Shown here: positions 2,815 to 11,710 of the stretch, piece after piece
Layout: each line of letters opens with the position of its first letter
How positions within the stretch are numbered: position 1 is the stretch's first letter
Virus genome (UHGV): UHGV-0249779
From: a virus
Strand: one strand, 5' to 3'
Length of the DNA: 11,814 bases
Program-made: the position numbers and the translations under genes
Notes under the pieces: model-generated
The model's database searches: none
What the model was told of the DNA's origin: nothing
Seen by the model: the letters and a program-made list of their open reading frames with translations, nothing else

Positions 2815-3195
2815 TTATTGGGCTTTAATGTAATTTTTCAACTTTGCAGTTTGCTCTACAGCGCTAGGAATGCATCCAAACATATTTGCGCATGAGGTTT
2901 GAACAACAATTTCGTTCTTATCGTTTCCTAAAGGTGTTTTTACAACCTGATATCCAAGCACGGCACTATTTCCAATAGGAGTGTATGTGGAAATTACCGT
3001 TTCATCTGCCATCTGAATTTTCCAACCAGAATTCATTGCTATCCAAGCTTTGGCTCTCGACCAATATGTATCGCATTGCTCTTTACCTTGACAGTAAACT
3101 GGTTGTTGAGCTTGTGCGGCAATTTGGGGATCTATTTTCTGAGCACATCCAGAGATGCTAATCAGAATAGCTGCTGTAACGAATAGTTTTCTCAT
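2815..3195 (-). CDS. Putative lipoprotein of unknown function, immediately downstream of and co-oriented with cI (rex-position moron)
   Basis: Starts MRKLFVTAAILISISGC: a signal peptide with lipobox ISGC. AAGGA lies 7 nt upstream of the ATG at 3195; the ATG at 3201 has too short a spacer. The gene is AT-rich relative to its phage neighbours. The 41-bp gap to the cI stop suggests co-transcription from PRM. Confidence 0.7.
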   Translation of the reverse strand: MRKLFVTAAILISISGCAQKIDPQIAAQAQQPVYCQGKEQCDTYWSRAKAWIAMNSGWKIQMADETVISTYTPIGNSAVLGYQVVKTPLGNDKNEIVVQTSCANMFGCIPSAVEQTAKLKNYIKAQ

Positions 3196-3242
3196 TGACA
3201 TTTCCTTTGTTTTGAATATACAACAAATAAATTGGCAAAAAA

Positions 3243-4929: not shown

Positions 4930-5859
4930 ATGGCAAACACTGCTGAGATATTCAATTTTCCAGTGCCGGATGCGGCACAAAAGGAGCCGCGCGTGGCAGA
5001 TCTCGATGATGGTTATACGCGCATTGCAAATGAGTTGCTGGAAGCTGTGATGCTGGCCGGATTAACACAGCACCAGCTTCTGGTCTTCCTGGCTGTCATG
5101 CGCAAAACATATGGCTTTAATAAAAAACTGGATTGGGTGAGCAACGAGCAACTGTCCGAATTGACCGGGATATTGCCGCACAAGTGTTCTGCTGCAAAAA
5201 GTGTTCTGGTAAAGCGTGGGATTTTGATTCAGAGCGGGCGGAATATCGGTATTAATAATGTGGTCAGTGAATGGGCAACATTACCCGAATCAGGTAAGAA
5301 AAATAAAGTTTACCTGAAAGAGGTAAATTTACCTGAATCAGGTAAGAAAAGTTTACCCAAATCAGGTAAAGGCGTTTACCCGAATCAGGTAAACACAAAA
5401 GACAAACTAACAAAAGACAATATAAAACCTTTTTCGTCCGAGAATTCTGGCGAATCCTCTGACCAACCAGAAAACGATCTTCCTGTGGTGAAACCAGATG
5501 CTGCAATTCAGAGCGGCAGCAAGTGGGGGACAGCAGAAGACCTGACCGCCGCAGAGTGGATGTTTGACATGGTGAAGACCATCGCGCCCTCAGCCAGAAA
5601 ACCGAATTTTGCAGGGTGGGCTAACGATATCCGCCTGATGCGTGAACGTGACGGACGTAACCACCGCGACATGTGCGTGCTGTTCCGCTGGGCATGCCAG
5701 GACAACTTCTGGTCCGGTAACGTGCTGAGTCCGGCCAAACTCCGCGACAAGTGGACCCAGCTCGAAATCAACCGAAACAAGCAACAGGCTGGCGTGACAG
5801 CCGGCAAACCAAAACTCGACCTGACGAACACTGACTGGATTTACGGGGTGGATTTATGA
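4930..5859 (+). CDS. O: Replication initiator O (mosaic: distinct N-terminal iteron-binding domain, lambda-identical C-terminal P-interaction domain)
   Basis: Start preferred at ATG 4930 (GGAGG upstream; MANTAEIFNF aligns with lambda O MTNTAKILNF). The C-terminal roughly 110 aa (SKWGTAEDLTAAEWMFDMV...DWIYGVDL) match lambda O from recall. The track ORF extends to 4840. Confidence 0.9.
   Translation: MANTAEIFNFPVPDAAQKEPRVADLDDGYTRIANELLEAVMLAGLTQHQLLVFLAVMRKTYGFNKKLDWVSNEQLSELTGILPHKCSAAKSVLVKRGILIQSGRNIGINNVVSEWATLPESGKKNKVYLKEVNLPESGKKSLPKSGKGVYPNQVNTKDKLTKDNIKPFSSENSGESSDQPENDLPVVKPDAAIQSGSKWGTAEDLTAAEWMFDMVKTIAPSARKPNFAGWANDIRLMRERDGRNHRDMCVLFRWACQDNFWSGNVLSPAKLRDKWTQLEINRNKQQAGVTAGKPKLDLTNTDWIYGVDL
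5281..5393. repeat. Replication origin iterons: five 18-bp direct repeats, each an internal inverted repeat (TTACCyrAAtCAGGTAAr)
   Basis: Copies at 5281..5298, 5310..5327, 5329..5346, 5353..5370 and 5376..5393, inside the O coding sequence as in ori-lambda. The sequence differs from lambda's iterons. Confidence 0.85.
5394..5440. other. AT-rich DNA-unwinding region of the origin
   Basis: An A-rich tract (cacaaaagacaaactaacaaaagacaatataaaacctttttcg) immediately right of the iterons, matching the lambda ori layout. Confidence 0.6.
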
Positions 5860-7014: not shown

Positions 7015-7263
7015 ATGCACGAACTATTTGTGCTGGTTTTGAGCACCTGTGCTAGCCTCAGCAATATGTCAGGTTGTTCAGTGGAAGTAGTGAATGTCAA
7101 CACCACAAAAGAGCCGGTAAACGTCTTTTATAGCAGGAAAGACTGCGAAGAAAGCATGAAAAACATTATGCTAAATCATGCTCTATACCATGAAGTATCA
7201 GGCAGAGAGCCATATATGGCAAAGTGCGAACAAGTATTTGTCTCAAAAAGTTTAATGAAATAA
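7015..7263 (+). CDS. Hypothetical small protein (82 aa), first gene of an AT-rich insertion
   Basis: AAGGGAG lies 7 nt upstream of the ATG. Low GC by eye compared with flanking ren and ybcN. Cysteine-containing with a hydrophobic N-terminus; no family recognised. Confidence 0.5.
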   Translation: MHELFVLVLSTCASLSNMSGCSVEVVNVNTTKEPVNVFYSRKDCEESMKNIMLNHALYHEVSGREPYMAKCEQVFVSKSLMK

Positions 7264-9181: not shown

Positions 9182-9266
9182 AGTCAGAGATAACAATCAA
9201 CTAATACTGTTTTGTTGATTTTTGCTTGTAATTGGCGTTTTGGTCTGATTTTTGTGGAGTAAGTTG

Positions 9267-9650
9267 ATGCGTGATATTCAGATGGTTCTTGAGCGTTGGG
9301 GAGCGTGGGCGGCTAATAATCATGAAGATGTGACCTGGTCGTCCATTGCCGCCGGTTTTAAGGGATTAATTCCTTCAAAAGTAAAATCTCGCCCGCAATG
9401 TTGTGACGATGACGCGATGATCATTTGCGGGTGCATGGCCCGTCTGAAAAAGAACAACAGCGATTTGCACGATTTATTAGTAGATTATTATATAGTCGGT
9501 ATGACATTCATGTCACTGGCAGGTAAGCATTGCTGCTCTGATGGTTATATCGGGAAAAGGTTACAAAAGGCTGAGGGCATAATTGAAGGGATGTTAATGG
9601 CATTAGATATCCGGTTAGAGATGGATATCGTTGTTAATAACTCTAATTAA
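9267..9650 (+). CDS. quuD: Late-gene antiterminator Q (QuuD/phage-82/21 type)
   Basis: 127 aa from ATG 9267, with GGAG 7 nt upstream: [21 protein letters not shown]...[20 protein letters not shown]..., matching DLP12 QuuD from recall. The track start at 9252 is a TTG. Confidence 0.85.
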
Positions 9651-9669
9651 TACGCCAATTATTTACTAA

Positions 9670-9701
9670 AAGTTATTAAAAATGGGGCGTTGAAACGCCC
9701 C
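9670..9701 (-). terminator. Rho-independent terminator for the porin transcript
   Basis: Hairpin GGGGCGT-tgaa-ACGCCCC (9684..9701), followed on the minus strand by ATTTTTAATAAC. Confidence 0.5.
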
Positions 9702-9724
9702 CAAAAATAAAGGGTAATATATAA
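9690..9724 (+). promoter_or_regulatory. Candidate late promoter PR' (Q-utilisation region)
   Basis: -35-like TTGAAA (9690..9695) with -10-like GGTAAT/TAATAT/TATATA candidates at 9713..9724, 17-19 nt downstream. Placement directly 3' of Q follows the lambdoid pattern. Sequence-only inference. Confidence 0.3.
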
Positions 9725-9789
9725 CAGAAGGTTTATATAGTTAGAAGCAAGGTTGTGCTTCTAAAGGAAGTGGCTTGAGGGAGCCACTT

Positions 9790-9830
9790 ATATGTTGGGG
9801 AGGCAAAGCCTCCCACAACATATCTTTTAG
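9790..9830 (+). terminator. Candidate tR'-like terminator (long hairpin plus CTTTT)
   Basis: 15/16-bp imperfect inverted repeat ATATGTTGGGGAGGC-aaa-GCCTCCCACAACATAT (9790..9823) followed by CTTTTAG. Preceded by two further hairpins at 9743..9762 and 9768..9789. Confidence 0.4.
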
Positions 9831-9838
9831 TAATCAAA

Positions 9839-10921
9839 TTAGAACTGGTAAACCATACCTACAGCAACGATATCATCGGTAGCAACGCCAGATGCTTTCG
9901 TGAAATCGCTCTTATCAATCAGGTTGATTTTGTAGTCAACAAAAGTGGACATATTTTTGTTGAAGTAATAGGTTGCACCTACATCAACATATTCAACCAG
10001 GTCCTGATCACCCCAAACACCCAAGTCTTTTCCTTTAGAATGCAGGTAAGCAACGGATGGACGCAGGCCGAAGTCGAACTGATATTGTGCAACAGCTTCG
10101 AAGTTTTGTGCTTTGTTGGCAATATGGTTATTACCAAAAACAGTCATGTTCTGGGTTTCAGAATAGGTGGTGGCCAGATAGATGTTGTTCGCATCATATT
10201 TCAGACCAGCTGCCCATACTTCAGCATTTTGACCAGAAGCATTCAGACCGTTGTTACCGTAGATAACCTGATTATTAGTGCGATCAGATTTAGCATAGGT
10301 TGCACCCACGCCGAATCCTTCATACTCATAAGTAGTTGAGAAACCGAAACCATCGCCATTAGCTTCAGTTACTTCATTTCGGTCATTTTTGCCCTGATAC
10401 TGAGCTGCAAAGTTCAGGCCATCAACCAGACCAAAGAAGTCGTTGTTACGATAAGTTGCAACACCTGTGGTGCGACCAGTCATGAATACATCTGTTTGGG
10501 TCCAGGTATCGCCACCGAATTCTGGCAGAACGTCGGTCCATGCACCGATGTCGTATGCTACACCGTAGTTACGGCCGTAATCGATGGAGCCGTAGTCACC
10601 GAATTTCAGGCCAGCGAAGGCAAGACGGGTTTTATCTTTGGAGGAACCTTGAGATTCAGCGCGGTTGCCTTTGAATTCATATTCCCACTGACCGAAACCA
10701 GTCAGTTGATCGTTGATTTGGGTTTCACCTTTGAAGCCAAGACGGGCATAAGTAGTATCACCATCATCTGCATCATTAGAGGAGAAGTAGTGCTTAGCAT
10801 TAACTTTCCCGTACAGATCCAGCTTGTTACTGTCTTTATTATAAATTTCAGCTGCCTGAGCAGACATCGCCATCAGTACTGATGCAGCTACAGCAGAAAT
10901 TGCCACTGTTAATTTTTTCAT
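9839..10921 (-). CDS. nmpC: Outer-membrane general porin of the OmpC/OmpF family, prophage-borne (NmpC/Lc type), apparently intact
   Basis: 360 aa. Signal peptide [23 protein letters not shown] followed by AEIYNKD...; C-terminal ...VGMVYQF with terminal Phe; a beta-barrel-like alternating aromatic/Gly composition. Location between Q and the holin, antisense, matches DLP12 nmpC and the PA-2 lc gene. Confidence 0.9.
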
Positions 10922-11349
10922 CGTGAGCCCTTTTTTTTGAACTATTATTAAAAAATGATGTCACTGCGCGATAAATATTCATCTAATCAATGTGATTATT
11001 TCAAGATGTAAGTTTTGGTTTCTCGTTTGATTTGTGAAGTAGATCTCTATTTTTATCTGAACTTTTTTCTATCGAATCCTATTCATAGCTCTTGGCTGAA
11101 TAAAAATAAATCTATTAGCCAATTTATATTAACGGCTGTTATTTATAAGTGCTCTATAATTTGAAGGTTCAATTTAAATCGGCTAAAAATAACACTGGAA
11201 ATTATTTGTTGGTTATTTGTTGAGGTTTTCTTATGTATTTGTGGTGGTGTTTTGAACACTCGGTAGCATTCTCGCAAATATCATTTAGTGGTTTACGTAC
11301 GTAAAAAATTGGTTATGCTGTTAAGAGTGGTTACTTCGTCACACAGCTT
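10922..11349. promoter_or_regulatory. Long AT-rich regulatory region upstream of the porin gene (porin promoter and 5' UTR, unresolved)
   Basis: A non-coding tract of more than 400 bp, strongly AT-rich with many A/T runs, immediately 5' of the porin start. No specific promoter hexamers could be assigned with confidence. Confidence 0.4.
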
Positions 11350-11382
11350 AAACCCGCCGTAGAGCGGGTTTTTCCATTTTTT
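11350..11382 (+). terminator. Rho-independent terminator-like hairpin about 110 bp upstream of the holin gene
   Basis: AAACCCGC-cgtaga-GCGGGTTT followed by TTCCATTTTTT on the plus strand. Confidence 0.55.
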
Positions 11383-11494: not shown

Positions 11495-11710
11495 ATGAAA
11501 TCCATGGATAAGTTAACAACGGGTGTCGCCTATGGCACCTCAGCAGGTAGTGCCGGGTACTGGTTTTTACAGCTGCTAGATAAAGTCACGCCCTCACAGT
11601 GGGCGGCAATTGGAGTGCTGGGTAGCCTGGTATTTGGCCTGCTGACGTACCTGACAAACCTTTATTTCAAGATTAAAGAAGACAAGCGTAAGGCTGCACG
11701 GGGAGAGTAA
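11495..11710 (+). CDS. essD: Class II holin of the phage 21 S type (pinholin, EssD-like), with dual start
   Basis: 71 aa, [26 protein letters not shown]...[33 protein letters not shown], matching S21/EssD from recall. Met1 and Met4 give the 71-aa and 68-aa products. GAGGTGGGG upstream of the ATG. Confidence 0.9.

Follow-up and report, generated by a model that had tools for sequence, protein, structure and literature searches.

An intact Lc/NmpC-type porin gene in a lambdoid phage genome, probably a cargo cassette between the antiterminator gene Q and its late promoter

Introduction

The Lc/NmpC porin is a textbook case of lysogenic conversion dating from 1985-86. The window discussed here, a stretch of 11,814 nucleotides from virus genome UHGV-0249779, carries a porin gene on the minus strand between the late antiterminator gene Q and the lysis genes, both of which are on the plus strand. 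The locus raises two questions: whether the gene is an intact member of the Lc/NmpC family carried as phage cargo, and whether late transcription has to pass through it in antisense on the way to the holin gene. The first-pass annotation said yes to both, treating the antisense crossing as required by the layout. We agree on the first and not on the second, and consider it very probable that the locus is an intact Lc/NmpC cargo cassette inserted between Q and the late promoter on which Q acts. The features that we refer to are collected in Table 1.

Table 1. Features of the Q to holin region (positions are those of the window)
Feature	Position	Strand	Remarks
Late antiterminator Q (QuuD/933W/H-19B type)	9267..9650	+	127 aa from ATG; PF06530
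Structured 3' UTR of porin mRNA, counterpart of DLP12/PA-2 IpeX	9670..9838	-	Five hairpins, terminator last
Intrinsic terminator of porin/IpeX transcript	9675..9701	-	GGGGCGTTTCAACGCCCC then ATTTTTAAT
Long hairpin then CTTTT, adjoining porin stop	9790..9830	+	Inverted repeats I1/I7, plus-strand fold
Porin gene, Lc/NmpC allele	9839..10921	-	360-aa precursor, ATG start
Mature porin and stop codon	9839..10852	-	Coding part
Porin signal peptide	10853..10921	-	Coding part
Porin promoter/regulatory region	10922..11291	-	~99% identical to lc (PA-2) and nmpC (K-12)
DLP12 lysis-operon +1, approximate	10970	+	K-12 ~576874; start as cited in source paper
CRP-binding site as annotated for PA-2 lc (misc_binding)	11030..11050		Centred 119 nt upstream of porin ATG
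Late promoter pR' (inferred)	11292..11319	+	TTTACG, 16-nt spacer, TATGCT; predicted start ~11326
Conserved initial transcribed element	11322..11346	+	TAAGAGTGGTTAC...CAC; = 933W 'qut' region
Intrinsic terminator after pR', candidate tR'	11350..11382	+	8 pairs, 113 nt before holin start
Holin/antiholin (P21 S / EssD type), first lysis-cassette gene	11495..11710	+	Pfam Phage_holin_2_1 2e-35

The porin gene and its product

The open reading frame listing of the window has a single unbroken frame at exactly 9839-10921 on the minus strand, the 360 codons running without interruption. The first 23 amino acids are a signal peptide, followed by AEIYNK, and are the same 23 residues as the sig_peptide of the PA-2 lc record. 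The protein ends in VGMVYQF and so has a C-terminal Phe, the kind of aromatic end that outer-membrane assembly requires, with the YQF ending common to OmpC, OmpF and PhoE. Pfam Porin_1 (PF00267) matches residues 29-360 over model positions 1-337 of 337, that is over its full length, with 507.1 bits (cut-off 23.7; E = 3.6e-152). The earlier description of an intact 360-aa porin with signal peptide and terminal Phe therefore holds. It is a real gene and not a chance open reading frame, since numerous E. coli genomes and induced phages contain the identical DNA and protein.

OmpC, OmpF, PhoE, OmpK36 and OmpK37 are full-length homologues (E about 1e-135 to 1e-120) that differ from our porin in loops, locus and regulation. 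Among solved structures OmpK37, OmpC, OmpK36 and PhoE are the best matches (E ~1e-135, residues 24-360), and the constriction segment LPEFGGDTW in loop L3 aligns with PEFGGD of OmpC, OmpF and PhoE. From this end-to-end alignment to solved porins the product is expected to form a 16-stranded beta-barrel trimer with pore activity.

The neighbours are as the first-pass annotation had them. To the right on the plus strand is the P21-type holin gene, whose counterparts in homologous records are annotated essD or holin S, and to the left a gene for a Phage_antitermQ protein (PF06530, 1.2e-53), of which the mechanical ORF begins at a TTG at 9252 and the ATG is at 9267. Farther left in the window are genes for RusA, YbcO, NinB, O, P and a cI-like repressor. 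Q has 95-98% amino acid identity to Q of ev243, PhiR29_2 and PhiR11_1, and about 78-81% to the Q of Stx phages (933W/H-19B/BP-4795 type); the record of 933W itself remarks on the similarity of its Q to that of DLP12.

Family: an allele of Lc/NmpC and not ompC

The porin has 91.7% amino acid identity to Lc of PA-2 and also 91.7% to K-12 NmpC, the latter compared as the gene reconstructed by removal of IS5. Identity to the chromosomal K-12 porins OmpC, OmpF and PhoE is only 62-64%. On these sequence comparisons the gene is an allele of the Lc/NmpC porin of lambdoid prophages, as had been proposed, and orthology with ompC fails. All of the features of the Lc/NmpC family that can be tested by sequence are present, including the antisense orientation and the location with Q on one side and the lysis genes on the other.

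The names in the databases could nevertheless suggest that the gene is not phage cargo but the chromosomal ompC (its RefSeq name) or an orthologue of ompD. The identical gene is labelled 'porin OmpC' by PGAP, several phage records use the name OmpD, and the protein passes the NCBIfam OmpC model with 515 bits (cut-off 484). However that model is a subfamily model and not an equivalog, and the protein falls short of the NCBIfam equivalog cut-offs for PhoE and OmpF. Identity to K-12 OmpC is 63.6% as against 91.7% to Lc and NmpC, and the gene is always found between Q and the holin gene of lambdoid phages, including those sequenced from induced virions. K-12 ompC also has micF annotated upstream, while Rfam gave no micF in the window. 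We regard an ompC or ompD origin as scarcely credible.

The surroundings are conserved together with the gene. The 1.9 kb from Q to holin is matched over at least 80% of its length by 36 phage records, with 98.4-98.5% nucleotide identity to PhiR70_1 and ev243, both coliphages, and 91.6% to the original PA-2 lc fragment, and it also matches 434B, a derivative of phage 434 with the DLP12 version of the region including IS5. PhiR70_1, ev243 and the genes for WP_000737263.1 have the same porin allele and gene order, the protein being 99.4% identical in PhiR70_1 and 100% in WP_000737263.1; the genes for the latter in complete E. coli chromosomes are also 100% identical at the nucleotide level. One of these chromosomes, that of E. 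coli AL.H8, has the identical porin inside a complete-looking lambdoid prophage with quuD on one side and essD on the other. The immunity and replication modules around this shared allele are unlike those of the window.

Lc of PA-2 (GenBank J02580) and NmpC of DLP12 (qsr') have the same position and orientation between Q and holin, and their signal peptide and the first third of the gene are identical to ours. They differ in being 365 aa and not 360 aa long, with loops L4, L5, L6 and L8 replaced or shortened in our protein. Of 'ORF1', a PA-2 reading frame overlapping the 3' end, only 12 codons are left in the window. Finally K-12 nmpC carries IS5 and the gene in the window does not: as the first-pass annotation stated, the K-12 gene is disrupted, b0553 (NC_000913.3) being a pseudogene in which IS5B splits the frame 58 nt ahead of the stop codon.

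Prevalence and allelic variation

The contrast that the first-pass annotation drew with K-12 implied that an intact copy is unusual, and this did not stand. At least 1000 public contigs carry exactly this protein, variously named 'outer membrane porin protein LC', 'porin OmpD' and 'porin OmpC'. All 79 of the informative IMG/VR loci that carry the same Q have a full-length porin copy, in each case as one single match, and the intact gene is therefore the rule, with the IS5-disrupted K-12 gene as the exception.

The porins of these 79 loci fall into three groups, with about 98-100%, 94% and 90-91% amino acid identity. We also made the suggested alignment with OmpC, OmpF, NmpC and Lc to look at the loops, taking as loops the segments aligned to those of the OmpF structure, with approximate limits. 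Variation relative to Lc is mostly in L4, L5, L6 and L8: 29 of the 35 differing alignment columns are in loops (Fisher p = 5e-8), with 7 in L4, 12 in L5, 5 in L6, 1 in L7 and 4 in L8. There are no differences from Lc in L1 to L3, which include the constriction loop, and L3 is also the same in NmpC. The nucleotide identity profile is mosaic: the first, 5' third of the gene is 100% identical, identity drops to 55-83% in the middle and 3' parts that encode the loops, and most of the 3' UTR is again at 97-100%. The three groups of loop-swapped alleles may have arisen under diversifying selection exerted by phages, colicins or antibody against Lc/NmpC.

The 3' end of the porin transcript

Q and the porin gene are convergent, with 188 nt between their stop codons, and most of this gap is taken up by what would be the 3' UTR of the porin mRNA. 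Folded on the minus strand this segment has a minimum free energy of -62.1 kcal/mol (z = -9.0), and none of 200 shuffled sequences was equally stable. Inverted repeats are present in it, and it ends in a canonical terminator hairpin (9701-9684), which in the terminator scan has 7 pairs, 6 of them G-C, ahead of ATTTTTAAT. The ~165 nt are nearly identical in K-12, PA-2 and 434B.

The region corresponds in place to IpeX of DLP12, which also lies directly 3' of the porin stop codon and has 167 nt against our ~165 nt to the terminator. The name is presumed here from position, and for the boundaries we rely on reviews. The original IpeX study is reported to have found this sequence also behind lc in PA-2 and to have tied it to the loss of OmpC in PA-2 lysogens. 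In DLP12 IpeX sits downstream of IS5, whereas in our phage, as in PA-2, it would come from an uninterrupted porin mRNA. According to reviews, IpeX is a product of the phage porin transcript and represses OmpC, and by analogy the 3' UTR in the window probably has the same activity. Rfam, run over the complete window with E <= 1, gave two chance matches only, and neither IpeX nor a porin-related sRNA family. The prophage sRNA svsR was considered as a relative and rejected, being an unrelated, cI-linked RNA that acts on lamB.

Upstream region and expression of the porin

The other side of the gene is also conserved. Mean column identity to lc and nmpC is ~99% over 426 nt, the 370 nt ahead of the ATG are ~99% identical to the lc and nmpC upstream regions, and the 21-mer annotated as a CRP site in PA-2 is present unchanged in the window. 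Control of the porin by CRP is likely on this basis, and the annotated site is consistent with the induction of NmpC under carbon limitation. In K-12 the nmpC promoter is located within -199 to -1 relative to the ATG, and its activity suffices to drive the IS5 transposase (PMC11677980). In K-12 strain NCM3722, which has an intact nmpC, NmpC makes up ~2% of the proteome and, when carbon is limiting, is the main porin, with OmpC more than 10-fold below the MG1655 level (PMC8144880).

It could still be argued that the gene is intact yet silent and contributes nothing to the lysogen, as 'quiescent' is the label given to nmpC of E. coli K-12 and B in the titles of papers. However the quiescence in K-12 was caused by the IS5 insertion, and the intact gene of NCM3722 is expressed at the level just given (PMC8144880). 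The promoter region in the window is ~99% identical to that of K-12, where the promoter is active (PMC11677980), and the single full-length match in 79 of 79 loci, with variation confined to loops, also speaks against a silent gene. We think this reading very unlikely, and with NmpC of NCM3722 the question of porin expression raised in the first-pass annotation has in effect its answer from a cassette nearly identical to ours.

The late promoter module

For the second question it is necessary to know where late transcription starts. A search with the spacer between porin and holin gave matches of window positions 11291-11373 to hundreds of Stx-phage records, and the matching segment carries the annotation 'promoter pR' / qut / terminator' in both 933W and VT1-Sakai. 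The alignment of 933W and window is given here.

933W: TTTACG-ATCGTAAAAATCTGCA-TATCAT-GA-TAAGAGTGGTTAC-ATTGCCAC...AACCCGCCGATGCGCGGGTTTTTTT
Window: TTTACG-TACGTAAAAAATTGGT-TATGCT-GT-TAAGAGTGGTTAC-TTCGTCAC...AAACCCGCCGTAGAGCGGGTTTTTCCATTTTTT

The Stx phages 933W, Sp5 and VT1-Sakai (the last being the source of the StxS RNA) share with the window the -35 sequence, the 16-nt length of the spacer, a TATnnT -10 and TAAGAGTGGTTAC, and the first terminator hairpin after pR' in 933W is homologous to the hairpin at 11350-11382. The core motif occurs once in the window with zero mismatches; three more matches, with 2-3 mismatches, are at chance level. PA-2, 434B, PhiR70_1, the AL.H8 prophage and DLP12 of K-12 have the module in this position too, with porin on one side and holin on the other, and the motif is present in 79/79 IMG/VR loci at 1639-1658 nt past the end of Q, the distance from the Q stop codon being 1642 nt in our phage. 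The second 'CRP site' annotated in PA-2 (CRP2) corresponds to 11326-11346 and coincides with the qut-like element.

Experimental data are available for the Stx-phage promoter. In E. coli O157 Sakai, dRNA-seq and Term-seq gave a span of 258 nt from the PR' start down to tR' (PMC7547250). The published coordinates are offset, and we located the start in NC_002695.2 by counting 258 nt back from the terminator, which puts it 7 nt after TATCAT, the equivalent of our -10. The homologous promoter is thus consistent with the experimentally mapped PR'. A consensus sigma-70 scan gave no site in either of the intergenic regions that flank the porin gene, and the pR' assignment therefore rests on homology. 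All promoters and terminators named for the window are called from homology or consensus. It is most likely that pR' of this phage is at 11292-11319, downstream of the porin gene as seen from Q and directed at the holin gene. Its use by this Q is probable rather than certain, because the spacer, the -10 (TATGCT as against TATCAT) and the putative recognition helix of Q all differ from those of 933W.

A published start for the DLP12 lysis operon independently points away from the porin gene. The regulatory amplicon of that operon extends from -121 to +650 of the published start. The forward primer maps to 10849-10868 of the window and we confirmed the 771-bp amplicon in the K-12 sequence, which puts the start, as cited in that paper, 49 nt outside the porin coding sequence and heading to the holin gene.

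A cassette between Q and its promoter

The extent of the insertion can be seen by comparison with 933W. Homology to the 933W Q ends at ...RLEMD (~nt 9626) and resumes at the -35 of pR' (~11292), which argues that a cassette of ~1.66 kb, roughly 9627-11290 and made up of porin 3' UTR, coding sequence and promoter region, is inserted between Q and pR', where it takes the place of the last codons of a 933W-like Q. In Stx phages pR' overlaps the end of Q, and the cargo (tRNAs and stx) is downstream and in the sense orientation, whereas in the window 1.64 kb of antisense cargo parts Q from pR'. A further difference is that the main tR' of Stx phages is a second terminator at +258; homology stops past the first hairpin, and both this tR' and the StxS part are absent from the window.

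With this arrangement the pR'/qut/terminator module at 11292-11382 would fire rightward into the holin gene. As late transcription would start beyond the porin gene, Q-dependent transcription need not cross it, and the cassette would be insulated. The claim that the layout obliges late transcription to traverse the porin gene is thus not upheld, the module being on the holin side of the porin.

The arrangement implied by that claim has pR' directly after Q and Q-modified polymerase crossing the hairpins at 9684-9823 and then the porin gene in antisense, so interfering with it at induction. Such a position of pR' is the canonical one in lambda and the Stx phages, where pR' abuts or overlaps the end of Q. 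The gap between Q and porin is strongly structured on the plus strand too. However 9651-9838 has neither a promoter-like site in the consensus sigma-70 scan nor a copy of the 933W-type pR'/qut motif. The clear terminator in the gap is on the minus strand, the gap being porin 3' UTR, and a complete pR'-like module at the 11292-11382 position is present in every porin-bearing relative examined. A search of the gap for a pR' of the phage 82 type (extended -10-like pause element, GCC discriminator, pause at +25) gave nothing convincing, and this route was dropped because Q is 933W/H-19B-like.

Lambda_ev087 is relevant in this regard. Its Q is ~88% identical to ours and is followed directly by other promoter-like and terminator sequences and then by an antisense blc, which lends the canonical arrangement some support, and the scenario of Q-modified transcription crossing a gene in antisense might apply in that phage. 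No 933W-like pR' module was found in Lambda_ev087, so similarity of Q does not by itself fix the promoter. As its Q also differs in the putative recognition helix, we do not count it as a second case of cargo between Q and pR'. For our phage we consider a pR' directly after Q very unlikely, and continue to place the cassette between Q and pR'.

Antisense transcription of the porin at induction could also come from the early right operon, if antiterminated polymerase from pR passes through Q and the hairpin at 9790-9830, and this would be compatible with the cassette model. Lambdoid early transcripts are normally resistant to termination, which counts in favour, as does the convergence of Q and porin with their stop codons so close together. 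The hairpin at 9790-9830 is a possible terminator for the Q transcript and the sole plus-strand candidate, but with a hairpin followed by four T it failed the terminator scan; in K-12 and PA-2 the counterpart has a run of 5 T. Against read-through, no N homologue was found between kil and cI in the window, and in K-12 a strong terminator placed in the gap between nmpC and quuD had no appreciable effect on an IS5 read-out (PMC11677980), although K-12 has an uninduced defective prophage. We regard early read-through into the porin gene as doubtful, though clearly less so than a pR' adjoining Q.

PhiR40_1 has an unrelated 148-aa antisense ORF in the same slot between Q and pR', with the pR' motif after it. 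The leftward cargo of the slot, as exemplified by porin with IpeX and the PhiR40_1 ORF, may be 'lysogeny-only' and kept out of the late transcript, in contrast to stx-type cargo, which follows pR' and tR', and early read-through at induction could shut off the porin and IpeX and so restore OmpC. We offer only tentatively, and with somewhat less than even confidence, the combined proposal that the Q-pR' junction is a recurrent slot for leftward cargo, that the loop alleles are under diversifying selection and that read-through at induction shuts the porin off.

Implications for annotation and for the lysogen

The gene, its position and orientation, its regulation, the 3' RNA and the phenotype are all known from the literature on PA-2 and DLP12, and the sole point at which we go past the textbook is the explicit placing of the cassette between Q and pR', which is proposed from homology. 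If this placement is right, a clash between late transcription and the porin is not a consequence of the layout, and experiments built on such a clash would probably be uninformative. With regard to annotation, the 'OmpC' label that this porin has in RefSeq is misleading, and can confuse analyses of porin loss in clinical isolates.

With regard to the lysogen, the phenotype that we expect is drawn from the known systems. PA-2 lysogens presumably express the porin with lowered OmpC. In a lysogen of our phage the cassette would be transcribed leftward by the host, and the porin, after Sec-dependent export, would form a pore like those of OmpC and OmpF. The 3' UTR would lower the synthesis of OmpC (and OmpF), by analogy with PA-2 and DLP12, and the lower OmpC/OmpF would shift the porin and phage-receptor make-up of the cell. 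Where NmpC/Lc is intact it can be a major protein of the outer membrane, and its presence can then change antibiotic permeability, the receptors for phages and colicins, and the level of OmpC.

Boundaries of the porin cassette

With regard to the left edge of the cassette, homology to the Q gene of the Stx phage 933W stops at about window position 9626, and the window Q ends in 7 codons (IVVNNSN) that stand where 933W Q has about 27 at its C-terminus; the edge is therefore within the ancestral Q reading frame. Other leftward cargo genes also follow related Q genes, for a hypothetical protein in PhiR40_1 and for the lipocalin Blc in Lambda_ev087. In PhiR40_1 the cargo is followed by a 933W-like pR' motif; no such motif was found in Lambda_ev087, and there a different promoter-like and terminator sequence lies directly after Q.

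On the promoter side, the 1986 record of PA-2 annotates a second "CRP site"; the identical segment of the window falls exactly on nucleotides +1 to +21 of the transcript inferred for pR', an element conserved in the "qut" region of 933W. This segment may serve as a Q-utilisation or pause element, instead of or besides a CRP site.

At the 3' end of the porin, PA-2 has an "ORF1" on the opposite strand that overlaps the porin gene. A T run is one base shorter in the window, which leaves only 12 codons as against 70 in PA-2, and ORF1 is thus probably not a real gene.

Coordinates of features discussed
Feature	Record	Position	Strand	Details
kil	window	within 2050-2460
Predicted lipoprotein	window	2815-3201	-	128 aa (MSMRKLFVTAAILISISGC...)
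Repeats in O	window	5282-5395		ACCTGATT...GGGTAAAC units
Lipobox-like ORF	window	7015-7263	+	82 aa (…LSNMSGC…)
ORF1 counterpart	window	9792-9830	+	12 codons
Second "CRP site"	window	11326-11346		identical to PA-2 record
ORF1	L001; L002	180-389; 2193-3601		70 codons in PA-2; hypothetical protein in 434B annotation
Leftward cargo	L013 (PhiR40_1)	990-1436	leftward	148-aa hypothetical protein
blc	L014/L015 (Lambda_ev087)		antisense	lipocalin Blc
"ompC: porin OmpC"	L004 (E. coli RefSeq)	12001-13083		prophage porin

Early region

The predicted lipoprotein gene adjoins that for the cI-like repressor, where lambda carries rexAB. Its product matches PHROG 16082, which is of unknown function, and has no Pfam match. 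Between kil and these genes (2291-2815) there are only two short ORFs, with no N-like antiterminator ORF seen, and the one that was scanned had no PHROG match. Nor was there one for the ORF at 7015-7263, whose N-terminus is lipobox-like and which is flanked by ren and the genes of the nin region.

Replication-origin iterons are expected inside a lambda-type O gene, and the repeats in the window O look like such iterons. A weak Rfam match to rliD there is spurious, being due to the repeat units.

Annotation of the porin

In E. coli RefSeq records PGAP names the prophage porin "ompC: porin OmpC", and copies at 90% or greater nucleotide identity are present in about 1300 such records, besides the true ompC. 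The label is a risk for automated analyses of porin loss or resistance.
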